Notes: generated by a model from the sequence alone, not told the origin. Shown: positions 26,038-35,580, numbered from the stretch's first letter. The stretch: DNA of 64,000 nt from Chitinophagaceae bacterium (GCA_031401115.1 JANNRE010000018.1:74233-138232); one strand, 5' to 3'. Made by a program: numbers and translations.

Positions 26038-26934
26038 CTAAGACCTCATTTTCCCCAATTTTTTGATTTTTATTAATTGAAATATGAGATAAATTAAAGT
26101 ACCCCACACACTCAATACAATTGAATAAGCCATGAACAACAGCCAATATGGAGTTTTAAAACGGGTTGACCATAATGTTCTGCGGTTAAAAAAATCAGTA
26201 TTCTGTACAGATGGCACACCCCAGGCAACCGTTTTTTGCACCAGCAGGTTACCAATGGCATCATTATTTTCTACTTTAACAGCAAGAATAATATTTCCTT
26301 TTGCATCACCCGGCAAACTGTCTTTGGTTACCGCAATTGTAACAGTTCCTGTTGAATCAGTTGTATAAGTTGTTTCGTCACCGGCAGAAAGAATACTACC
26401 AAGCCGCTGATAACCTGCTTTCATTTCCATTTCATTCACAGGAATCCATTCACCATTTTCATACTTTGTTACTTTTACTGTTATACTCCTTACTCCATCA
26501 TCAGAAGATGTATCAATTTCAATTTTAGCTTTTGTAATTTTAAGTTCTGCAACAACTTCCTCTTCTTTATTAACAACCACTGCAATAAAGGTATGCTGCG
26601 GAGATGCATCCCATTTTTGTTTTAAGCCAACAGGCAAAAAACTTTTTGCTTTTCCTATACCATCAGTTGTTACTTTACTAATTAAATTTTCATTAGCAAC
26701 ACTATCAAGATAAAGCTGAAATGATTTATTTTTTACCGGCTCCAGCTTCCTCCCTTTTTTAAGCATCGTTTCCACTACAAGGTATTGCATGCTGTTGTTC
26801 TCACTGTAATAGTTCAGTTTTATCACCTCTTCTGCTATTACTGAATCTTTCTGTGCTATAGCTGGTGTATGAATCAGCATGAATAGATTGCACAACAACA
26901 GTAATACGTATTTATTTCTTTTCATCTTTTTCAT
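26038..26934 (-). CDS. Secreted beta-rich protein with C-terminal membrane anchor
   Basis: Signal peptide, beta-rich body and C-terminal TM (LWSTRFKTPYWLLFMAYSIVLSVWGTLIYL). Start at 26934 or 26925, overlapping the NrfD-like gene stop. Confidence 0.75.
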   Translation of the reverse strand: MKKMKRNKYVLLLLCNLFMLIHTPAIAQKDSVIAEEVIKLNYYSENNSMQYLVVETMLKKGRKLEPVKNKSFQLYLDSVANENLISKVTTDGIGKAKSFLPVGLKQKWDASPQHTFIAVVVNKEEEVVAELKITKAKIEIDTSSDDGVRSITVKVTKYENGEWIPVNEMEMKAGYQRLGSILSAGDETTYTTDSTGTVTIAVTKDSLPGDAKGNIILAVKVENNDAIGNLLVQKTVAWGVPSVQNTDFFNRRTLWSTRFKTPYWLLFMAYSIVLSVWGTLIYLIFQLIKIKKLGKMRS

Positions 26935-28231
26935 GTTGCTCAGAAATTGTTTCGTGAATTGGAATAATGGGGTAAACTCTTGCAAAAAAAGTAATTACGA
27001 GTAATGCGCCGGAAAGAGAACCAATGGCTATGGCCCACTCTTCCCAACTGGGAAAGTAATAATGATAACTTTCAGGTACATCCTGCATTGGTAAAAAAGG
27101 ATGCAGTAAAGTGGGGGTTACAATGAGGTAACGTTTAAACCATGCACCAACCACAATCATTATGCCTGCAATAAACATGGGGAGTGGCTTTCTTCCTTTT
27201 TTAAATAAAAGTATAATGATGGGAATAATCATTCCAACGATTATGGCAAACCAAAACATTACCGCATACTCGCCGGTAAACAATCCTGTTAAATGCGCCT
27301 CTTCCGATTTTTTCATTTTAAACGCAGGAACCAAATATTCATTAACATTAAAATACAAATAAAGAAGAGCAAGCATTACCACAATTCTTCCCATTTTTTC
27401 AAAATGCATTTCAGTAATATATTTTTCCAGCTTATAATAGTTTCGAAAAACATACATGGCTACTACCACACCGCCTGCACCTACCAAAAAAGCACCTGAA
27501 ATAAAATAAGCCCCAAAATTTGTACTGTCCCATCCAGCCCGGTACGTGGTTGCAAACAACCAGGATGTAACAGTGTGGATACTAAAAGCAACTGGTATAA
27601 TGGTAATGCACAGAATGGTAATAGCTTTCTCGCTTACTTTAAATTGTTCTTTTGTGCCTTGCCAAAAAGAACCCTGAAACTTATATAATTTATGTAATGC
27701 ATTGCCAGATTTCTCTTTGAACCTAAGCAGTATTTTAAGGTCGGGCAACAAAGGGAAATACAATAGTAATAAACTAATGCAGAAATAAGTACCAATAACG
27801 ATTACATCCCACATAATGGGAGATTGAATACGGCCATGTATAAATAAATTCAACATCCTTTCTGGACGACCCATGTCCACAATAATAATAAGTGAAGCAA
27901 ATACAATGGCAGATACAGCAATTATTTCGGATATACGTGTAAGTGGTGTTGCCCACTTTACATTAGCCAGTCTGAATATGGCCGTGATAAGGGAACCCAC
28001 TAAACTAATAGCCACAAAAAAAACAAAATTTGAAATGTAAATACCCCAGGAAACATAGTCGCCCATGTTGGTTACTGCCAGTCCGTACCTTAATTGACGG
28101 TAATATGCAAATGCTCCTATGAGGCATAGAACAATAAGTACCATTGTCCATATTTTACCACGCCTACCAAATTTTTGGGGTAAAAGATCAAGGGTTATTT
28201 GGTCATTTACTTTTGAAGATGAATTTTCCAC
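26912..28231 (-). CDS. NrfD/PsrC/ActC-family integral membrane quinol-interacting subunit
   Basis: WGIYISNFVFF, DMGRPER, SPIMWDV, HTVTSWLF and GWDST..GAYFISGA; about 10 TM helices. Confidence 0.9.
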   Translation of the reverse strand: MENSSSKVNDQITLDLLPQKFGRRGKIWTMVLIVLCLIGAFAYYRQLRYGLAVTNMGDYVSWGIYISNFVFFVAISLVGSLITAIFRLANVKWATPLTRISEIIAVSAIVFASLIIIVDMGRPERMLNLFIHGRIQSPIMWDVIVIGTYFCISLLLLYFPLLPDLKILLRFKEKSGNALHKLYKFQGSFWQGTKEQFKVSEKAITILCITIIPVAFSIHTVTSWLFATTYRAGWDSTNFGAYFISGAFLVGAGGVVVAMYVFRNYYKLEKYITEMHFEKMGRIVVMLALLYLYFNVNEYLVPAFKMKKSEEAHLTGLFTGEYAVMFWFAIIVGMIIPIIILLFKKGRKPLPMFIAGIMIVVGAWFKRYLIVTPTLLHPFLPMQDVPESYHYYFPSWEEWAIAIGSLSGALLVITFFARVYPIIPIHETISEQHEKDEKK

Positions 28232-28242
28232 AATGAAAATTT

Positions 28243-29208
28243 TTAATGATGTTGTTTATCAGCAGGGGTTTCATTTTCCAATCCGGATTCATAAGGGAAA
28301 TTGCGGTTTGCAGGTGGCAGGTAATACACACTTGGCTTTGTACCCAAATCTTCCATAAGCCTGTAGCCAGCTTTATCTTTTATTAAATCGCTAAAGCGAA
28401 ATGTTTCTGCCCCATTTGTTACTGAGTCTTCATTCATATCGCCAAACATAAAAACACCGTTGGGGCAGGCAGATACACAATGCGGCAGTTCGCCCTTTCG
28501 TGCCATATCAGGGCAGAAATCGCATTTACTAACGGTACCAATTTTTTGTGGCATACTGGTTTCGCAAGAGTAATGCTGTACAGCAACCGCTTCTTCAAGT
28601 ATTGGTTCCTGCCAGTTAAAAACTCTGGTTGAATATGGACAGGCAGCCATACAGAAACGGCAACCAATACACCTGTCACTATCAATTAAAACTATCCCAT
28701 CCTGCCTTTTAAAAGTTGCATCAACCGGACAAACTTTTACACAAGGTGGTTCATCGCAATGCATACAGGTTGTGGGCTGCCAATAAGGAGCAGTTTGATC
28801 AGCATCCTGCATAGAAAGAACTTTTATCCAATTTTGTCCCGGGTTTAATCCGTGTGCATGGTTGCAGGCTGTTTTGCAAGCGCCCACATTTTTACACCTG
28901 CCAAGATCAATAACCATTACAAATTTTTTGCCTTCAATCCCTTTTCTTTCTTCGCTATTTGAAATCTTTGGTAAATCGGGTACAGGTTTTAAAAATGCTT
29001 TATCTATTTCAATAATCTCACCATCAACTGATAATAATTTCACTTTTTCACCTGATGCCTTTACATGCTCACCAGCATAATCTTCAAAAGGATTTTTTGG
29101 GGAGTTGCAACCCACAGCGGCCATTGTTGCCAGCAAACCAGTAAGCAGAAATTCTTTTCTTGAATTCGTATTGTTACATCCGTTTTCCTTATTGCAGTTA
29201 CAACTCAT
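28243..29208 (-). CDS. 4Fe-4S dicluster protein (NrfC/DsrO/QrcC-like), putative Tat lipoprotein
   Basis: SRKEFL + AAVG-C signal; CKNVGACKTAC, CMHCDEPPCVKVCP, CIGCRFCMAACP and KCDFC...PHCVSACP. Confidence 0.92.
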   Translation of the reverse strand: MSCNCNKENGCNNTNSRKEFLLTGLLATMAAVGCNSPKNPFEDYAGEHVKASGEKVKLLSVDGEIIEIDKAFLKPVPDLPKISNSEERKGIEGKKFVMVIDLGRCKNVGACKTACNHAHGLNPGQNWIKVLSMQDADQTAPYWQPTTCMHCDEPPCVKVCPVDATFKRQDGIVLIDSDRCIGCRFCMAACPYSTRVFNWQEPILEEAVAVQHYSCETSMPQKIGTVSKCDFCPDMARKGELPHCVSACPNGVFMFGDMNEDSVTNGAETFRFSDLIKDKAGYRLMEDLGTKPSVYYLPPANRNFPYESGLENETPADKQHH

Positions 29209-29234
29209 AATAAAATAATTTAATAGTAATTGAT

Positions 29235-29474
29235 TTATTTCTTAATCCAATTCTGCAATTCTTCATTACTGATTTTTTTAGCCCCAGCAGTCAACAGATT
29301 TTTATTAATTTCAACAAGTTTCCCTTCACTCGTAAGCATCTTAACTGTATCAGTTTCTGATTCAGTTTTTTTCTTACCACCAGTAATAAATTTTAGCAAT
29401 GTAATAGAAGAGAGAAGAGCAGCACCCCAGAGCAGGAATTTTTTTCTGGTGCCGGTTGATTTGTTTTGCTCCAT
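29235..29474 (-). CDS. Small membrane protein with Tat-like leader
   Basis: TRKKFL + TM helix, then VKMLTSEGKLVEINKNLL, which resembles VKLLSVDGEIIEIDKAFL of the downstream Fe-S protein. Confidence 0.75.
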   Translation of the reverse strand: MEQNKSTGTRKKFLLWGAALLSSITLLKFITGGKKKTESETDTVKMLTSEGKLVEINKNLLTAGAKKISNEELQNWIKK

Positions 29475-29549
29475 AAATAGTTTGTTATTTTAACAACACA
29501 AAGTAAAAAGCCTTAACTATTTTAAAGACAATTGAACTCATATACAACT

Positions 29550-29563
29550 ATGATTATCATCAT
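29550..29563. promoter_or_regulatory. FNR/CRP-like palindromic box ATGAT-N4-ATCAT
   Basis: Perfect palindrome ATGAT-TATC-ATCAT, 76 nt upstream of the operon starting at 29474. Confidence 0.55.
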
Positions 29564-29581
29564 GTAATTCAATTGGACTAT

Positions 29582-29626
29582 AATACAAAAGACCGGTTTG
29601 GAATTTCCAAACCGGTCTTTTGTATT
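29582..29626 (-). terminator. Terminator hairpin (22-bp perfect inverted repeat)
   Basis: AATACAAAAGACCGGTTTGGAA-T-TTCCAAACCGGTCTTTTGTATT, just downstream of the cytochrome c stop. Confidence 0.8.
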
Positions 29627-29638
29627 TTAATAAGTGGT

Positions 29639-30058
29639 TTACTTTTTTAATGTTCTCATAAAATTAACAACACTCCACCTGTCATCTTCATCAGGTATTT
29701 TCTTTTTGAAACTTGGCATATCATCACGGCCTTCTGATGTTTTATAAAACAAACTGCCGTCAGTCTGGGATTGAAAAGCTGCTTTTGAAAAATCGCCTGC
29801 CTCTGTTTTTAATTGGGCAGCCTTGGGGCCATCCCCCAAACCCTTAGTACCATGGCAGGATTTACAATGTGTGCCATACAGGGCCTTACCTGTGGCAATA
29901 GTCTGGGCAACTGAGGCTACAGGGTTTTTCTTATTTTTAGCAACATCCGGAACCACCCATGGATCTTGCAGAGTAGAAGATGTAAATCCAGAAATAAATG
30001 TGAACGAAAACATTCCCGATATGATTAAAGCAACTGTAACAAGAAGATTCTTTTTCAT
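29639..30058 (-). CDS. Monoheme cytochrome c
   Basis: Signal peptide, NPV..., CKSCH heme motif, GDGP and distal Met in DDMPSF. Confidence 0.92.
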   Translation of the reverse strand: MKKNLLVTVALIISGMFSFTFISGFTSSTLQDPWVVPDVAKNKKNPVASVAQTIATGKALYGTHCKSCHGTKGLGDGPKAAQLKTEAGDFSKAAFQSQTDGSLFYKTSEGRDDMPSFKKKIPDEDDRWSVVNFMRTLKK

Positions 30059-30162
30059 AATAACTATTTTGTTTTAAAAGTTTTAATTAATTGAATTACC
30101 TAATTTCAGAAGGCAATTTAAAAGAACTACCCTGCAATGACGCTGATATTGGAAACTAAGTT

Positions 30163-30180
30163 GTATGATTGTTGTCATAC
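30163..30180. promoter_or_regulatory. FNR/CRP-like palindromic box
   Basis: GTATGAT-TGTT-GTCATAC, about 105 nt upstream of the cytochrome c ATG. Confidence 0.55.
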
Positions 30181-30237
30181 AATTTTTTAAAAAACCTATA
30201 TTATCTACTCAATTTTTATGATAGCTATATCGTTCTG

Positions 30238-30765
30238 TTATTTTTCAAAATAAAAACCAAGGAAAGTATCAATATTCATCATATCTGTAAGTTCCGGTTC
30301 TTTTTTCCCATCGAATAAAAATATTCCACAGATATCACCTTTTGTGTTCAAATCTATAATAGTGCTTGTTTTATTCATTTTAACAAATTGCAGAAACCTG
30401 TGTGTTGAGGTTTCAATTATATGAATTTTTGGCCAGTACTGCTTCATCACCATTTGTGCATTTCTCATTTGAAAAAAGCAATCATGCATGTTGCTTTCAA
30501 ATTGATTTTCATCACTTAACCCCTTTATTTTTTGCAGTTGCAGGCTATCGGAGTTATAAAAAACGGCAGATGGGTAAGTGATTACTAGCGTATCCTCAAA
30601 ACTGCCTGGTGGTTTTCTTCGATTGGTATCCTGCTGTTGAAAATTTGAATTTTGCGAAATTTTATTCCGTTTTTTTTCTATGCAGGCACTGTAAAGAATA
30701 AAACAAAATAAAAAAAACCACCAACCTGAAAAATATATTTTACGTTTTACTGTAACCTTATGCAT
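30238..30765 (-). CDS. Hypothetical lipoprotein
   Basis: Hydrophobic leader ending YSA-C; 175-aa ORF. Confidence 0.65.
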   Translation of the reverse strand: MHKVTVKRKIYFSGWWFFLFCFILYSACIEKKRNKISQNSNFQQQDTNRRKPPGSFEDTLVITYPSAVFYNSDSLQLQKIKGLSDENQFESNMHDCFFQMRNAQMVMKQYWPKIHIIETSTHRFLQFVKMNKTSTIIDLNTKGDICGIFLFDGKKEPELTDMMNIDTFLGFYFEK

Positions 30766-30805
30766 AAATAAATTTAAATATACAAACTAAGTATTTTGAA
30801 TTGAT

Positions 30806-30833
30806 AAGAGCCCCGTAAATAATTACAGGGCTC
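30806..30833 (-). terminator. Possible terminator after the DUF5777 gene
   Basis: GAGCCC-cGTAA...TTACa-GGGCTC hairpin. Confidence 0.45.
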
Positions 30834-30875
30834 GTTTACTACGTTGATTTAGTAGTTATTCAATTTTTATCTTTC

Positions 30876-31895
30876 TTAATAATTCCATAAACGGGTAATA
30901 TTAAACCCAATCAAGAATCGACCACCCGGCACTTCTGTATTTGTTGATTTATCAGTATACTTAAACGGATTATTTCTGTTAAACATATTATTGATAGAAG
31001 GGTTTAGATAATAGTAATTGGTAAAAAATAACTGGAAGGAGTGGCTGCTTGTATTAAATTCCAATCCAAAAGACAGGCTTGGGTTAGGGTTGCTGGTAGC
31101 ATGTTTGGTAATTGGCTGATCATAATTTACCATTACCGATGTTACATTAGTTAATTTATACCTTGCAGAAAGTGCTACAGCAAAATGATCAAACTTCATA
31201 GAAGGATTTATTTTCAAAGTAGAATCATTTAACTTGGTAAAATAGCCATTCACTACGTTTTGATGCGAAACACTTGGTGCTACCTGAACAGATAACTTCT
31301 CTGTAACTTTTCGGGCAATCAACACTTGATTAAAATAGTTGAGGCGATCACTTGAGTATCTGTAAATTTCCTTATTCGGATCTTTCTTGTCGTTATAAGC
31401 AACATTCACATAATAACTTACACTAACTGGGTATTTCCCTTTCGTTTGTGTAATAATTGCATATTTCAAATTTACATCCCACAATGGGCCTGAAATTGAT
31501 GAAGTAGTTGCTCCCGGAATAACTGCAGCAGTTGTTTTTGTAAATCCGATTCCAACATTCAATTTATTTACAGGAACATAATTAAACCCGATGCGGATAT
31601 TTGATGGTGCAAAGAAACCCCAAAAATCTTCGTAGCCATTATTCCAAGTGCCAAATCGATGCATGATATCCATTTCCAATGTTTTTTTAACAGGAACCAT
31701 CACGGTTTGGTTATCGCTAATCCATATACTCTGAAATGTATTTTTAACGGGTTTTACTTTAACTGGTTCTGGTTTATCAGCTACTTCCTGCAGTGAATCC
31801 TGTGCCTGTAACCCGGTATTTAAAAGGAACACGCAAATAGATAGCAATGTTGCCGGCTTCAACCAACTTTTCGCTTTATATAATATAAGTTTCAT
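30876..31895 (-). CDS. DUF5777 family outer-membrane beta-barrel
   Basis: Signal peptide, HRFG, NIRIGF, QVLIARK, HSFQLFFTN and C-terminal GFNITRLW (aromatic end). Confidence 0.8.
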   Translation of the reverse strand: MKLILYKAKSWLKPATLLSICVFLLNTGLQAQDSLQEVADKPEPVKVKPVKNTFQSIWISDNQTVMVPVKKTLEMDIMHRFGTWNNGYEDFWGFFAPSNIRIGFNYVPVNKLNVGIGFTKTTAAVIPGATTSSISGPLWDVNLKYAIITQTKGKYPVSVSYYVNVAYNDKKDPNKEIYRYSSDRLNYFNQVLIARKVTEKLSVQVAPSVSHQNVVNGYFTKLNDSTLKINPSMKFDHFAVALSARYKLTNVTSVMVNYDQPITKHATSNPNPSLSFGLEFNTSSHSFQLFFTNYYYLNPSINNMFNRNNPFKYTDKSTNTEVPGGRFLIGFNITRLWNY

Positions 31896-31916
31896 TTGAT
31901 TTATTTTTTAAGTCAA

Positions 31917-32309
31917 TTAATTTTTTGGTGCACCGTTGCGAATCCAGTCATACACTTTTTGTTGATTTGCTTTAACGGGGCTTGGCATATACTGTGCCAT
32001 TTCACCAGTGATCAATTGATACAGCTTGCTTTTTTTAGGATCTGTTAGGTTAACAAAACCCCCATTTACAATTTCTGAATAAGAAACTGAACTTATAAGA
32101 GAAGGGCTATGAGCTCCTGAAACATGGCATCCTGCAAGAGCACAATTCGCACTAAAGATTGGTGCTAACTCATTTTGAAAACTTACCTGTTGAGCTGGAA
32201 GATCATCTGGACCTGAGGCTATTTCTGGCTTAATAATATCCTTGTAACAACTAAATAAAGTAATCATTAAAGTAAGCAGCGCACTTATATAAATAGTTTT
32301 TCGTTTCAT
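31917..32309 (-). CDS. Lipoprotein cytochrome c-like protein (CxxxxCH, Planctomycete cytochrome C-like)
   Basis: Lipobox LFS-C; VSFQNELAPIF..NCALAGCH, P..SKL, YMP and WIRNGA. Confidence 0.75.
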   Translation of the reverse strand: MKRKTIYISALLTLMITLFSCYKDIIKPEIASGPDDLPAQQVSFQNELAPIFSANCALAGCHVSGAHSPSLISSVSYSEIVNGGFVNLTDPKKSKLYQLITGEMAQYMPSPVKANQQKVYDWIRNGAPKN

Positions 32310-32329
32310 GATCGTTGATTTTTGATAAA

Positions 32330-33145
32330 TTATTTATTATTAAAATTCATGTTGCATTCAATGTTAATGTTGTCTGCAATACTTGTACTACTTATACCAA
32401 ACTCACGGCAATTGAAACTAAATTTTAATTGAAGTCCAAAAACATCATATGGGGATCCAGTTGCAGGAGTTACTGTTTTTTTGCTTACATAACTAAGTTT
32501 ACCAATAATAGATTTTGTAATGGGTACCAGCGCTACAGTGGGGCTATATTTATTATGCCAAGTAAGATCTAATGTTACAATATAACCGTTGCTACTGGGA
32601 TCGAATTCTACCTTGGTGGTTCTAATCTTGGCCAAATTGGTATCAACAAGATTTTGGAATCCTGATCTGATAGCTATGGTATTCATACCAGCTACATTAC
32701 AACCTGCATCACGGCCAGGCTCTCCTGTATTAGAAGTATTGATCTGAACATAGCCATTGAAATAAGTTTTGCTCGGATCATTTTCATAAAAAGCCCATGA
32801 ACTATCTTTTAGTGGTTGCCCTGTAACAGCATAAGCTAACATTTTATCAGTTGTTACATTGTGCATACCAAACTGGTTAAAACGACCAGTTAAAAGGCCA
32901 GCCGCTCCTACATAATCTGTTGACCAAAGCACACTTGAGTGCGACTTATCCATTTTCCATTCAGTAGCATTTCCAGCAGTCATATTACCAGGCAAATGAA
33001 CATTAGAACCTCTTGTTGCAACAAATGGTTTGTTTAGTTGAATGGGAACAATTAAGTCATTATCACGGGTACAACTTACAATGTATCCCAGAAAACTTGT
33101 AAGGATTACAAATACCATCAGAATTTTACTACTTAGCAGTTTCAT
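32330..33145 (-). CDS. YceI-like lipoprotein
   Basis: Lipobox IVS-C; WKMDKSHSSV...LTGRFNQF and FNCREFGI match the YceI pattern (W.iD..HS.v...G.F; in R.dFG). Confidence 0.65.
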   Translation of the reverse strand: MKLLSSKILMVFVILTSFLGYIVSCTRDNDLIVPIQLNKPFVATRGSNVHLPGNMTAGNATEWKMDKSHSSVLWSTDYVGAAGLLTGRFNQFGMHNVTTDKMLAYAVTGQPLKDSSWAFYENDPSKTYFNGYVQINTSNTGEPGRDAGCNVAGMNTIAIRSGFQNLVDTNLAKIRTTKVEFDPSSNGYIVTLDLTWHNKYSPTVALVPITKSIIGKLSYVSKKTVTPATGSPYDVFGLQLKFSFNCREFGISSTSIADNINIECNMNFNNK

Positions 33146-33213
33146 AACATATTTTTTAAGTGACTAATATTTTAAATTCTTAGTAAAACTATTTCAGACT
33201 GGCCTAAGCATAT

Positions 33214-33249
33214 ATGACTTCCATCAAAAATGGAGGTGACATCAATCAT
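33214..33249. promoter_or_regulatory. Two tandem FNR/CRP-like boxes
   Basis: ATGAC-TTCC-ATCAA (33214-33227) and GTGAC-ATCA-ATCAT (33236-33249), upstream of the ATG at 33145. Confidence 0.5.
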
Positions 33250-33335
33250 AAAATAATAAATGGAGCGTATGAAAGAATACAACACTTTTTCATTAAATGT
33301 GTTGAAAAGGAAATGATACTATTTTGTAGAAGGAA

Positions 33336-33857
33336 TTAATTGATCTGTTTTGATTTCAGCTTCGATATTATAAAATCAACCAGACAAATAATAACAAAAG
33401 CAAAAAGGTTGATGAGCAGGCTGATGGAATAAATATGCATACCGTTTTTAACTGCATCGCTTTGATTTGACTGTAATGTTTCCTTAACAATGGATCCTGC
33501 AAAAAAAAAGAAAAATAATAAGCTATGCCACAAACTAAAAACTGTTTTTCTATTGAGCAGGGGAATAAAAAAAAGGAGAGAAAGAACACCCCATATTTTA
33601 AAAAAAGGCTGGTGAACTGAAAGCTGAATATTGTGTAAGCTATAATGGGGATATAAATTTTTGAGTAACAAACCAAGATATAACAAACCTGTAAATGCAT
33701 GTGAAACCGGCAGAAGTATTACACCCCTGTTGTAGAAAAAGCGTTTTACAAATTGAGTTGAACTAAAAAGATGTACAAGCAAATAAATAAAAGGATACCC
33801 GCAGAAAAAAGCTATTAATTCAAGCCTTTCTATGTAAGCAAAAAAATCAATACCCAT
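33336..33857 (-). CDS. Hypothetical integral membrane protein
   Basis: Four or five hydrophobic segments; in an operon with the upstream gene (4-nt gap). Confidence 0.7.
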   Translation of the reverse strand: MGIDFFAYIERLELIAFFCGYPFIYLLVHLFSSTQFVKRFFYNRGVILLPVSHAFTGLLYLGLLLKNLYPHYSLHNIQLSVHQPFFKIWGVLSLLFFIPLLNRKTVFSLWHSLLFFFFFAGSIVKETLQSNQSDAVKNGMHIYSISLLINLFAFVIICLVDFIISKLKSKQIN

Positions 33858-33861
33858 TTTT

Positions 33862-34656
33862 TTAAATAATCCCTTCTAAGGGAGTTTTTTTATTCCATCT
33901 TAAAAATCCAACCAACGCAAACAGTAAACACAAAACAGAGGAAATAATAGCTGTATAACCTACTGCAGCATTCGCATCAAACTGCCCTTTATAAATTCCA
34001 AACAAAGCCCATGCTGCTACCAGGCCAAAAGCAAATTCACCTTTTACATAAGTAAAAAAAACAGTGAGCAAAAAAGCAACCGTAATCATAATACAACTCC
34101 AGAGCCAGGGTTCAATTCCAAAACCATTCCATTGTGCATATATCAAAACGGCGGTGGCATTCGCAATAGTGGCCACACATATCCAGGCTAAATAAATTAC
34201 AAAGGGACTGTACAAAGTAAGCAGCGGCCATCCGGTAATAGAGGATCTGTTTACCTGCATCACTCTGTAAATTTTAATTAATGATCTTAAAAACCAAGCC
34301 ATAATTACTAAAGAAACGCCAACCATTAAATAATGCCAGGCAATAATCCAGCCTGCATTTAAAACACTGGTAAGCAAAAAGAGCGGAGCCACTTTATTTA
34401 TATGTTCACAAATGGGATCTTTTTTTTCTCCCTTCCACAATAACATGCCACTATACACAACCCATAAAAGCAGAAGCAAATAAATTACACTCCAAATACC
34501 GAATGTAAATCCGGCAGGTACAAACAGGTTCGGAAATAAAGCACTTACTTCTCCTGTGTTTAACCCGTTAATGGGTAAAATATTGGCGAGGGCATTCACA
34601 ACAATCATTGCAATAAAGAAAATGGGCTGCAGTACTGCAAGAGTTTTATTATTCAT
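33862..34656 (-). CDS. Tryptophan-rich sensory (TspO/MBR-like) membrane protein
   Basis: VNALAN..PING..TGEVS, FVPAGFTFGIWSVIY, NAGWI.AWHY and YLAWICVATIAN. Confidence 0.75.
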   Translation of the reverse strand: MNNKTLAVLQPIFFIAMIVVNALANILPINGLNTGEVSALFPNLFVPAGFTFGIWSVIYLLLLLWVVYSGMLLWKGEKKDPICEHINKVAPLFLLTSVLNAGWIIAWHYLMVGVSLVIMAWFLRSLIKIYRVMQVNRSSITGWPLLTLYSPFVIYLAWICVATIANATAVLIYAQWNGFGIEPWLWSCIMITVAFLLTVFFTYVKGEFAFGLVAAWALFGIYKGQFDANAAVGYTAIISSVLCLLFALVGFLRWNKKTPLEGII

Positions 34657-34668
34657 GATAGATTATTT

Positions 34669-35580
34669 TTATTTCCACAAAACATAGGCTTTTGCCAAAA
34701 ATGGCAAGAGCAATACAATTGCCACAGCCAATATACTATTAAAAATACAATAAGCTGTTATAGATAATGCCACTAAGTAAAACGGGTAAGCAAATGCGAT
34801 GACAACAAATAAAATACTATGGTAGTGTATAGGACCTTTAAAATTTTTTGCAAGCATTTTTACTGGTAGAAAAAAAAGTAGGTGTGTAATCACTCCCAGC
34901 ATTGCAGGTAAAAACAGTAAATATTTGTTTACACTTTTCTTTGGTTCTGCATGGATAGTTGACAATTGCTGCAATTGTTCTTCTGTTTCTTTGTTGATGT
35001 TTTGCATAACAATTGCCGTTTCTTCAATACCGTTTTTTACTTCTTTGCCAAAAGGTTTTCCAAAATTAATTTCCACTCCAAGCGGAAAATCAAAGAAGGA
35101 ATTATAACGCAGCCACACAGGAATTAATTGAACATCTACCCCATCTGCCCAACCCTGAACCATTAAACGGGGAGCTCCTTTTTTAAGTGGCACTTGCAAA
35201 GTGGTTTGGTAATTACAAAAGCCTTCAACAAAAATTAAAACATCTTCCCCTTTTAGTAAAACTTGTCTGCACAATTCAAATGTTACATCATTCTTGCCTA
35301 AATTTTCTTTTCCATCCCTTATACGGTAAATAGGAATCATATTTACTGATTGCAAAAGTTTTACTGCCCATTTTTTATGAAACACATCACCTCTTGTAAG
35401 AAAATGTACACGTTTCTTCATTAGAGAACCTACAAGTATAGCATCTAAAAAAGAATTGGGATGATTACAACCAATTACTAATGGAGTTTGAATAGCTGTT
35501 GCCTCCCTGTTGTAAACATAAAAGCGTTTACAAACAAGCCATGTAGTGAAATGAGTAAGCAGTTTTACAAGTAAGTACAT
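34669..35580 (-). CDS. 1-acyl-sn-glycerol-3-phosphate acyltransferase (PlsC family)
   Basis: NHPNSFLDA (HxxxxD), FVEG motif and C-terminal TM helices. Confidence 0.88.
   Translation of the reverse strand: MYLLVKLLTHFTTWLVCKRFYVYNREATAIQTPLVIGCNHPNSFLDAILVGSLMKKRVHFLTRGDVFHKKWAVKLLQSVNMIPIYRIRDGKENLGKNDVTFELCRQVLLKGEDVLIFVEGFCNYQTTLQVPLKKGAPRLMVQGWADGVDVQLIPVWLRYNSFFDFPLGVEINFGKPFGKEVKNGIEETAIVMQNINKETEEQLQQLSTIHAEPKKSVNKYLLFLPAMLGVITHLLFFLPVKMLAKNFKGPIHYHSILFVVIAFAYPFYLVALSITAYCIFNSILAVAIVLLLPFLAKAYVLWK

Follow-up and report, generated by a model that had tools for sequence, protein, structure and literature searches.

The present analysis concerns a 64,000-nt stretch of DNA from a Chitinophagaceae bacterium of soil or freshwater (GCA_031401115.1 JANNRE010000018.1:74233-138232, referred to over its whole length as the window) and a cluster of genes located at positions 26038-33857, all called on the minus strand, which encodes an NrfD-family membrane subunit and its iron-sulfur (FeS) partner together with putative c-type cytochromes, a DUF5777 outer-membrane barrel and several smaller exported or membrane proteins (Table 1). 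In the order of transcription, the genes encode a 173-aa membrane protein, a YceI-like lipoprotein, a Cx4CH cytochrome lipoprotein, the barrel, a 175-aa lipoprotein, a periplasmic cytochrome c, a 79-aa protein with a signal resembling those of the twin-arginine translocation (Tat) system, the FeS subunit, NrfD and an anchored protein with two immunoglobulin (Ig)-like domains. A preliminary description of this region had named seven of these genes, and gene calling confirmed all of them as real, on the minus strand and at the coordinates then given; their identities (NrfD, FeS, cytochrome c, CxxxxCH lipoprotein, DUF5777, YceI and anchored beta-protein) were upheld by Pfam, NCBIfam, AlphaFold2 (AF2) models and motifs shared by orthologues. 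Three further conserved parts, the 79-aa Tat-like protein, the 175-aa lipoprotein and the 173-aa membrane protein, had not been named, and with the last of them the cluster reaches beyond position 33145, through 33336-33857. Neither Pfam nor NCBIfam returned a match for the Ig-like protein, the 175-aa lipoprotein, the 173-aa membrane protein or the 79-aa Tat-like protein.

Table 1. Genes and sequence features of the cluster, in the order of transcription (positions in the window).
Feature	Position	Strand	Evidence or remark
Four-helix membrane protein, 173 aa	33336..33857	-	No Pfam match; conserved, directly upstream of the YceI-type outer module
CRP/FNR-type box pair ahead of the YceI operon	33236-33249 + 33214-33227		Centres 22 nt apart
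YceI-like lipoprotein, 271 aa	32330..33145	-	PF04264, 32.1 bits against a cut-off of 23.7
Monohaem c-type cytochrome lipoprotein, 130 aa, C-ALAG-CH (Cx4CH)	31917..32309	-	Lipobox Cys and motif; haem attachment predicted
DUF5777 outer-membrane beta-barrel, C-terminus ...RLWNY	30876..31895	-	PF19089, 241 bits
Hairpin 3' of the barrel gene, transcript end	30808..30833	-	-19.4 kcal/mol, z -6.1
Lipoprotein, 175 aa	30238..30765	-	No Pfam match
CRP/FNR-type box before the cytochrome c gene	30165..30178		Motif search
Periplasmic monohaem class I cytochrome c, 139 aa	29639..30058	-	PF00034 and PF13442
Strong hairpin 3' of the cytochrome c gene	29582..29626	-	-32.4 kcal/mol, z -9.4
CRP/FNR-type box before the small protein-FeS-NrfD-Ig operon	29550..29563		Motif search
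Tat-like protein, 79 aa	29235..29474	-	TRKKFL signal and KMLTxxGKLVEI motif
Tat-exported lipid-anchored FeS subunit, 321 aa, NrfC/PsrB/ActB2/DsrO type	28243..29208	-	Four-cluster ferredoxin domains (Pfam/NCBIfam)
NrfD-family quinone-interacting membrane subunit, 439 aa	26912..28231	-	PF03916, 118 bits
Periplasmic two-domain Ig/FN3-like protein, 297 aa, C-terminal membrane anchor	26038..26931	-	AF2 model

The cluster is not a single operon, as RNA folding places strong hairpins after the barrel gene and after the cytochrome c gene, both of which had been missed by a simple sigma-70/terminator scan. Upstream, 4 nt from the 173-aa gene, lie genes for a 264-aa multi-helix membrane protein and for a membrane protein with an acyltransferase domain (33862-35580), and neither of these neighbours is conserved with the cluster in the 80 related loci described below.

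Conservation across Bacteroidota and a two-module build

Orthologues of NrfD at 83-90% identity are found in more than 120 cluster representatives, the named ones being Chitinophagaceae or Chitinophagales. An even sample of 401 Bacteroidota genomes was searched with NrfD, and about 18 of them have a high-scoring orthologue, the remainder showing only matches at the level of ActC, a subunit of alternative complex III (ACIII). An NrfD module of the cluster type is present in about 13 of the 401 genomes. The 20-kb neighbourhoods of 12 orthologue-bearing genomes from this sample were examined and all 12 share the gene order, the common set being a cytochrome lipoprotein of the same family (hereafter CxnCH, the spacing of its motif being variable), the barrel, the small protein, FeS, NrfD, the Ig protein and cytochrome c.

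A scan of the GTDB species representatives gave at least 597 Bacteroidota NrfD matches. The best 80 of these loci were examined with family hidden Markov models (HMMs) built from the first 13 loci; their hosts belong to Chitinophagaceae, Cytophagales, Sphingobacteriales, Flavobacteriaceae, Saprospiraceae and Bacteroidales, with one Chlorobiota metagenome-assembled genome (MAG). In the 46 well-flanked loci (at least 6 kb upstream and 2.5 kb downstream), the FeS, NrfD and Ig proteins are always present, and a separate cytochrome c gene is found in 42, the small Tat-like protein in 37, the DUF5777 barrel in 39, the CxnCH cytochrome in 39, YceI in 19 and a lipoprotein with an EB_dh/DOMON domain in 14; 29 of these loci have either YceI or EB_dh. 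In loci of the anaerobe type, cytochrome c is part of the Ig-like protein rather than separately encoded. The preliminary description had made its reading depend on the barrel, YceI and cytochrome genes being conserved together with NrfD and FeS; the two sets do occur together in 39 of the 46 loci, in several orders. As judged from gene content, the outer module (YceI, CxnCH cytochrome, barrel and 173-aa protein) has stayed with the NrfD module across orders.

Tandem duplication of either half is observed in some loci. The outer set is present three times in L032, and in a Lutibacter MAG (L076:1-15347) the FeS-NrfD-Ig unit is repeated three times, the first two copies each with their own cytochrome c, behind one barrel-cytochrome set. 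These duplications of one half or the other in L032 and L076 show the cluster to be built of two modules. The FeS-NrfD-Ig unit is also present twice in L011, L074, L078 and L088. The haem-synthesis gene hemA (glutamyl-tRNA reductase) adjoins the cluster in several Flavobacteriaceae (L066, L070, L078, L085 and L093) and also in L011.

Composition of the inner and outer modules

Among solved structures, NrfD matches only the ActC chains of ACIII, from 2e-45 (6f0k_C) to 9e-39, and it is about 30% identical to the ActC of its own genome. Its best NCBIfam match is DsrP, with 136.9 bits, far under the cut-off of 350, and that of the FeS subunit is DsrO, with 187.6 bits, under the cut-off of 200; since both scores remain below their cut-offs, neither protein is a member of the named equivalog. 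The FeS subunit has the Tat-like motif SRKEFL (SRRxFL in most orthologues) followed by a lipobox Cys, and belongs to the PsrB/ArrB/ActB2 type. Its orthologues share 15 invariant Cys, the first motif, C-x5-C-x3-C, being short by one Cys, and this pattern would, by comparison with ActB and QrcC, fit one 3Fe-4S and three 4Fe-4S clusters. The HMM of the 79-aa family also matches the FeS protein (6.5e-7). A Tat-like signal and, after it, the motif (K/V)(M/L)L(T/S)xxG(K/E)(L/I)(V/I)E(I/V) are common to the 79-aa protein and to the FeS subunit in its N-terminal extension, and the 79-aa gene resembles a copy of the FeS leader region.

The AF2 model of the Ig protein (33 orthologues, predicted local distance difference test score, pLDDT, of 89) displays, after a signal helix, two Ig/FN3-like sandwiches and then a C-terminal membrane helix, and the fold search among solved structures returned generic Ig folds only, which suggests a scaffold rather than an enzyme. 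Six Bacteroidales-type loci seemingly devoid of cytochrome c do encode it, fused to the Ig protein, its domain standing where the anchored protein otherwise has its first Ig domain. In the fusion of L100, residues 7-124 share 42% identity with the cytochrome c of the window (8e-28), and residues 205-292 share 30% identity with the window Ig protein in its C-terminal part (4e-12). This fusion argues for a functional link between cytochrome c and the Ig protein. In three of the fusion loci, the inner genes are followed by genes for a small membrane protein, SCO1, COX1, COX3, COX2-cytochrome c and haem O synthase, thus holding before caa3 oxidase genes the same position as the genes of ACIII. From this synteny, the inner half is most likely a minimal quinol:cytochrome c oxidoreductase; this proposal of the preliminary description is now strongly supported by the fusion in six loci and by the caa3 operon downstream in three.

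The host genome (3.47 Mb, 100% complete) was searched for a catalytic partner of the NrfC/NrfD-type pair. None of the Psr/Nrf/Ttr/Arr/Soe type is present in the cluster or in the rest of the genome, and the sole molybdopterin enzyme match genome-wide (PF00384) is ActB of an ACIII encoded on contig 20. The view that the cluster lacks a molybdopterin subunit is therefore confirmed, and the dedicated Mo-enzyme elsewhere that would have turned the pair into part of a standard complex is not found beyond this ActB. Pfam and gene calls reveal no catalytic or multihaem subunit in the cluster, in agreement with the earlier opinion that it is not a canonical Psr, Nrf or ACIII, and no ActA-like multihaem gene or second NrfD gene is found in the cluster or in the core of the 80 related loci. 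The ACIII of contig 20 is complete and coexists with the cluster; it contributes the only other NrfD-family genes of the genome, ActC and a weak ActF-like match, and is followed at its 3' side by caa3 oxidase genes. A cbb3 oxidase is encoded on contig 22 and a clade II-like nosZ on contig 14. A NosGH-like role was also considered and dropped, as NosGH are relatives of NapGH and not of NrfCD.

A catalytic-type partner does accompany NrfD in another Bacteroidota subgroup, 37-40% identical (L013:7933-14368; also L015, L017 and L018). Its genes combine NrfD and a signal-less FeS protein with an 816-aa molybdopterin oxidoreductase, and further encode a c7-type multihaem cytochrome, a dihaem cytochrome c and a small protein. 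This subgroup, with a true molybdopterin subunit and multihaem cytochromes, is represented in five of the 401 sampled genomes.

In the outer module, neither the lipobox Cys nor the C...CH varies within the CxnCH family, the spacing being x4 in 42 of 54 orthologues and x2 (CxxCH) in the 12 others. The window protein is without Pfam match; among 12 orthologues, five match Cytochrome_CBB3 and three PSCyt1, and members of the family also match PccH. Among solved structures, the family profile matches FoxE best (5mab, 2.3e-6), with a weak similarity covering one haem domain, and PccH is another solved relative of the family. The gene ahead of this cytochrome is interchangeable and encodes YceI, an EB_dh/DOMON haem-type lipoprotein or a hexahaem lipoprotein. 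YceI is paired with the 173-aa membrane protein in 15 of the 80 loci, and the hexahaem lipoproteins, carried on a Gly-rich tether, are found in marine Flavobacteriaceae and have matches to MtrC-type domains. Directly after the lipid Cys, the YceI and EB_dh lipoproteins carry T-[KHR]-[DEN]-[DN] (C-T-R-D-N-D in the window YceI), a pattern resembling the surface-export signal of Bacteroidota lipoproteins.

The AF2 model of the barrel (pLDDT 81.5) has about 12-14 strands and a C-terminal aromatic residue. The 175-aa lipoprotein is limited to YceI-type clusters of Chitinophagaceae (15 of the 46 well-flanked loci). The 173-aa family has a single invariant His, so that a cytochrome b561-like role is not supported, and no b561 match was obtained for it.

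DUF5777 is found in 162 of the 401 Bacteroidota genomes. In 20 genomes without the NrfD module, a stand-alone barrel occurs with one or two PSCyt1-like cytochromes, a 180-aa YceI and an OB-fold protein, and this set adjoins a sensor kinase and a LytTR regulator in four or five loci. The host genome has such a set on contig 20 (L110:7730-11301), composed of an OB-fold (tRNA_anti-like) protein, two open reading frames for PSCyt1-like cytochromes c, YceI, a DUF5777 barrel and a second YceI; it adjoins a Y_Y_Y-type sensor kinase and a LytTR regulator. A tree of 79 barrels has one branch (support 99/95) with the 59 cluster-linked barrels on one side and the 20 stand-alone ones on the other, and within the cluster-linked clade the subclades follow the type of partner. 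Given this topology and the wide distribution of the stand-alone set, the outer module can be regarded as the specialised paralogue of an envelope set that is general in Bacteroidota.

CRP/FNR-type boxes shared by the units of the cluster

The motif RTGAY-N4-RTCAY is found three times in the window for 0.74 expected, and all three occurrences lie at promoters of the cluster, those of the YceI unit, of the cytochrome c gene and of the small protein-FeS-NrfD-Ig unit. In the 80 loci, 70 of 119 cluster operon heads have TGAY-N4-RTCA upstream, compared with 50 of 348 other genes, an odds ratio of 8.5 whose p-value is too favourable, the loci being related. The boxes are often paired at a spacing of 22 nt, and such pairs precede YceI in 17 of 21 loci, other genera included. 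Among the related loci, a box is present upstream of the cytochrome c gene in 15 of 28, before the small Tat-like gene in 15 of 25 and before the FeS gene in 9 of 17; none is found in nine upstream regions of the 175-aa lipoprotein gene, nor before NrfD.

Genes for CRP-family regulators adjoin the cluster in seven loci; three of these regulators are FNR-like, with an N-terminal C-x2-C-x4-C-x6-C, and three are receiver-Crp hybrids. The orthologue of the receiver-Crp hybrid in the host genome adjoins a PAS histidine kinase, Usp, Hsp20 and a ccoI-ccoNO-ccoP (cbb3 oxidase) operon which is itself headed by a box. These genes form a segment of contig 22 (L112:92-13599) comprising ccoI, a fused ccoNO and ccoP together with the PAS histidine kinase, the receiver-Crp hybrid, Usp and Hsp20, an arrangement resembling a compressed oxygen circuit of the FixL-FixJ/FixK type. 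Boxes are also located ahead of nosL and of a Usp gene in the same genome. From the operators, the adjoining FNR-like and receiver-Crp regulators and the box at the cbb3 operon, it is a reasonable inference that the cluster is switched on at low oxygen.

Boxes of the GTGAC form also precede TauE, thioredoxin/persulfide dioxygenase and SQR genes in a sulfur-oxidation cluster of the host genome which has its own Crp regulator. This Crp-headed cluster (contig 15, L102:4104-16867) has three GTGAC-N4-RTCAY boxes at promoters and encodes TauE, thioredoxin, a persulfide dioxygenase-rhodanese fusion, rhodaneses, YeeE-type transporters and a SoxA/TsdA-like cytochrome, then a SoxB-like protein, DsrE, an OprD-type porin, a major facilitator superfamily transporter and SQR. 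A sulfur-oxidation role was set aside for the cluster under study, as no sulfur gene recurs in the 80 loci.

Proposed function, alternatives and likeness to known systems

On balance, the evidence tips towards a two-module unit working at low oxygen, in which a four-subunit, Mo-free miniature of ACIII and an outer electron-carrying set would be linked to each other. The inner module would consist of the small Tat-like protein, FeS, NrfD, the anchored Ig-like protein and the monohaem cytochrome c. Menaquinol would be oxidised at NrfD and electrons would be relayed by the lipid-anchored FeS subunit, through its iron-sulfur clusters, to cytochrome c, held close by the Ig-like protein, from which they could reach the cbb3 oxidase, NosZ and the outer module. 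The latter, made up of YceI, the Cx4CH cytochrome, the DUF5777 barrel and the 173-aa membrane protein, would most likely connect the cytochrome c pool of the periplasm with the outer membrane or cell surface by the transfer of single electrons, its last carrier being interchangeable between YceI (probably with an isoprenoid quinone), a DOMON/EB_dh haem b protein and a hexahaem cytochrome.

The strength of the parts of this proposal is unequal. We have fairly high confidence that NrfD, FeS, the Ig anchor and cytochrome c constitute a menaquinol:cytochrome c oxidoreductase, and moderate confidence that the outer set of cytochrome, barrel and carrier exchanges electrons with the same cytochrome c pool. 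Electrons probably flow among the quinone pool, the small cytochrome c and the cell surface. Quinol oxidation, the exposure of the last carrier at the surface, and the passage of electrons through the outer membrane together with its direction are what we infer; outward flow to an external acceptor would fit the regulation and the oxidase synteny, and inward flow from Fe(II)-like donors would fit the likeness to FoxE and PccH.

Several observations weigh against a unit joining both modules. The hairpins predicted by folding make its three units separate transcripts, and the consensus of the boxes fits no single regulator, similar boxes preceding the sulfur-oxidation genes. Haem attachment at Cx4CH is an assumption, and the Met expected as sixth haem ligand is not conserved in the CxnCH family. 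The predicted barrel, of about 12-14 strands, is too small to enclose a cytochrome as MtrB or Cyc2 do. The set of DUF5777, cytochrome and YceI is found in 162 of the 401 genomes versus about 13 for the NrfD module, this far wider distribution implying that the outer set works without the inner one, and no barrel is found in the well-flanked loci L048, L067 and L101 or in the Bacteroidales type. The porin-cytochrome route considered in the preliminary description thus finds support solely as a connection with the outer membrane, given the size of the barrel and the wide occurrence of the outer set without NrfD.

These points lend themselves to another explanation, which we regard as rather unlikely: only the inner module would be respiratory, an extra low-oxygen quinol:cytochrome c oxidoreductase feeding cbb3 and NosZ, and the barrel, cytochrome and YceI would form a separate envelope cassette, co-located and co-regulated, which might traffic a hydrophobic molecule such as quinone, carotenoid or haem to the outer membrane, carried by YceI and admitted by the barrel in the manner of a FadL-like gate. 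Besides the separate transcripts, it would account for the outer set being ten times commoner than the inner one and standing alone in 20 of 21 sampled genomes, and for the Bacteroidales-type loci, where the inner module and an oxidase occur without barrel; the small size of the modelled barrel would suit small or hydrophobic solutes, and YceI binds polyisoprenoids (PMC8981238). The outer set may indeed have a non-redox role in lipid trafficking. However, it has an invariant c-type cytochrome, its YceI is swapped at orthologous positions for haem proteins (DOMON, hexahaem), which fits the carriage of electrons better than that of lipids, and the cluster-linked barrels form their own clade, kept with the NrfD module across orders.

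The direction of the chain could also be the reverse, a possibility to which we give a lower probability still. A reductant such as Fe(II), entering through the barrel or meeting it, would be oxidised by the Cx4CH cytochrome, considered as FoxE-like, and its electrons would pass to cytochrome c139 and to cbb3 at low oxygen, the NrfD complex feeding the same cytochrome pool or, if reversed, reducing menaquinone. The best solved relatives of the CxnCH family, FoxE of Rhodobacter ferrooxidans (2.3e-6) and PccH, tied to electron uptake in Geobacter, would agree with such a chain, as would low-oxygen regulation combined with cbb3, since microaerobic iron oxidisers use cbb3 under low oxygen in Cyc2-Cyc1-cbb3 chains. 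Against it, FoxE is matched weakly and over a single haem domain, the hosts live as ordinary heterotrophs, the 80 loci contain neither carbon-fixation nor iron-specific genes, and in Bacteroidales the inner module precedes an oxidase without any outer donor module, which fits forward quinol oxidation. It is very unlikely, finally, that FeS and NrfD constitute a DsrOP-like sulfur module linking the oxidation of periplasmic sulfur compounds to the quinone pool. DsrO (187.6 bits for a cut-off of 200) and DsrP are the best NCBIfam matches, and boxes with an identical core are located ahead of TauE, thioredoxin/persulfide dioxygenase and SQR in the Crp-headed sulfur-oxidation cluster; both scores are nevertheless under the cut-off, that of DsrP far under, NrfD matches only ActC chains among solved structures, the synteny is with oxidases and cytochromes, DsrMKJ-like genes are absent from the window and the 80 related loci, and no sulfur enzyme is found in any of these loci.

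A bolder proposal, which we put forward only tentatively, is that the DUF5777 barrel, the lipid-anchored monohaem cytochrome and the interchangeable surface carrier would form a trans-outer-membrane electron route on a plan unlike that of porin-cytochrome conduits, provided with its own four-subunit miniature complex III and induced at low oxygen. Bacteroidota, which rank among the major degraders of soil, freshwater and sea, are generally credited with simple respiratory chains consisting of ACIII plus oxidases. A second quinol:cytochrome c complex, Mo-free and of four subunits only, would be the smallest NrfD-family member doing that job and a useful model for the way in which membrane subunits devoid of cofactors link the chemistry of quinones to the movement of ions. 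If the outer module does carry electrons to the surface or from it, hundreds of species not regarded as electroactive would take part in extracellular electron exchange, through conduit parts (small barrel, YceI, DOMON) unlike those of any known conduit, and ordinary “aerobic” Bacteroidota of soil and water could respire on extracellular substances or draw electrons from them. Cultured carriers of the cluster include Niastella vici, Chryseolinea serpens, Pinibacter aurantiacus, Eudoraea adriatica and Pelagihabitans pacificus. The cluster is apparently undescribed: no paper describing it was found, no paper in the library searched mentions DUF5777 or brings such parts together, and a review of NrfD-family complexes includes no such complex (PMC8076601).

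Among the closest known systems is ACIII (6f0k, 6btm, 6lod, 8k9e), with which the cluster shares a long NrfD-family subunit whose solved relatives are ActC only, a periplasmic multi-cluster FeS subunit akin to ActB in its B2 half, a likely exit through a monohaem cytochrome c, like ActE, and a presumed activity as menaquinol:cytochrome c oxidoreductase. It differs from ACIII by an FeS subunit composed of ferredoxin domains only, without the molybdopterin-like B1 domain, by the lack of the pentahaem ActA, of the second NrfD-like subunit ActF and of ActD, and by the presence of the anchored two-Ig-domain protein, the small Tat-like protein and the link to outer-membrane genes. The association of an NrfC/NrfD-type pair with an anchored periplasmic cytochrome c, without catalytic molybdoenzyme, is reminiscent of DsrJOP and of Nhc and Qrc, NrfD-family complexes (PMC8076601) known from sulfate reducers. 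The cytochrome of the cluster is however monohaem, those of DsrMKJOP, Nhc and Qrc being tri-, hexa- or nonahaem; unlike in DsrMKJOP and Qrc, there are no DsrMK or QrcB partners, the scores are under the family cut-offs and the host is an aerobic or microaerobic heterotroph.

The encoding together of an inner-membrane quinone module, a periplasmic cytochrome, a barrel and a redox lipoprotein that may lie at the surface is shared with the MtrCAB and Pcc systems and the fused porin-cytochrome Cyc2. No sequence relation to MtrB or Cyc2 was seen, although no test aimed at one was made. The modelled barrel of the cluster has about 12-14 strands against 16-26, the adjacent cytochrome is monohaem and the outermost carrier may be the non-haem YceI; a large barrel (at least 20 strands) enclosing a multihaem cytochrome is not what the AF2 model and the monohaem neighbour indicate. 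FoxE (5mab), an Fe(II) oxidoreductase, is a soluble dihaem CxxCH protein, in contrast to the monohaem Cx4CH lipoprotein of the window. In Escherichia coli, YceI is paired with a small membrane protein (yceI-yceJ), but the 173-aa partner found here has one invariant His and no cytochrome b561 match. A precedent for YceI is offered by secreted redox proteins of Cellvibrio, in which ubiquinone-binding YceI-like domains occur together with c-type cytochrome domains (PMC8981238). Cbp2D and Cbp2E of Cellvibrio japonicus combine a YceI-like isoprenoid/quinone-binding domain with extracytoplasmic c-type cytochrome domains and are thought to pass electrons (PMC8981238); in the cluster, separate lipoproteins and a dedicated barrel take the place of a secreted multidomain protein with a carbohydrate-binding module.

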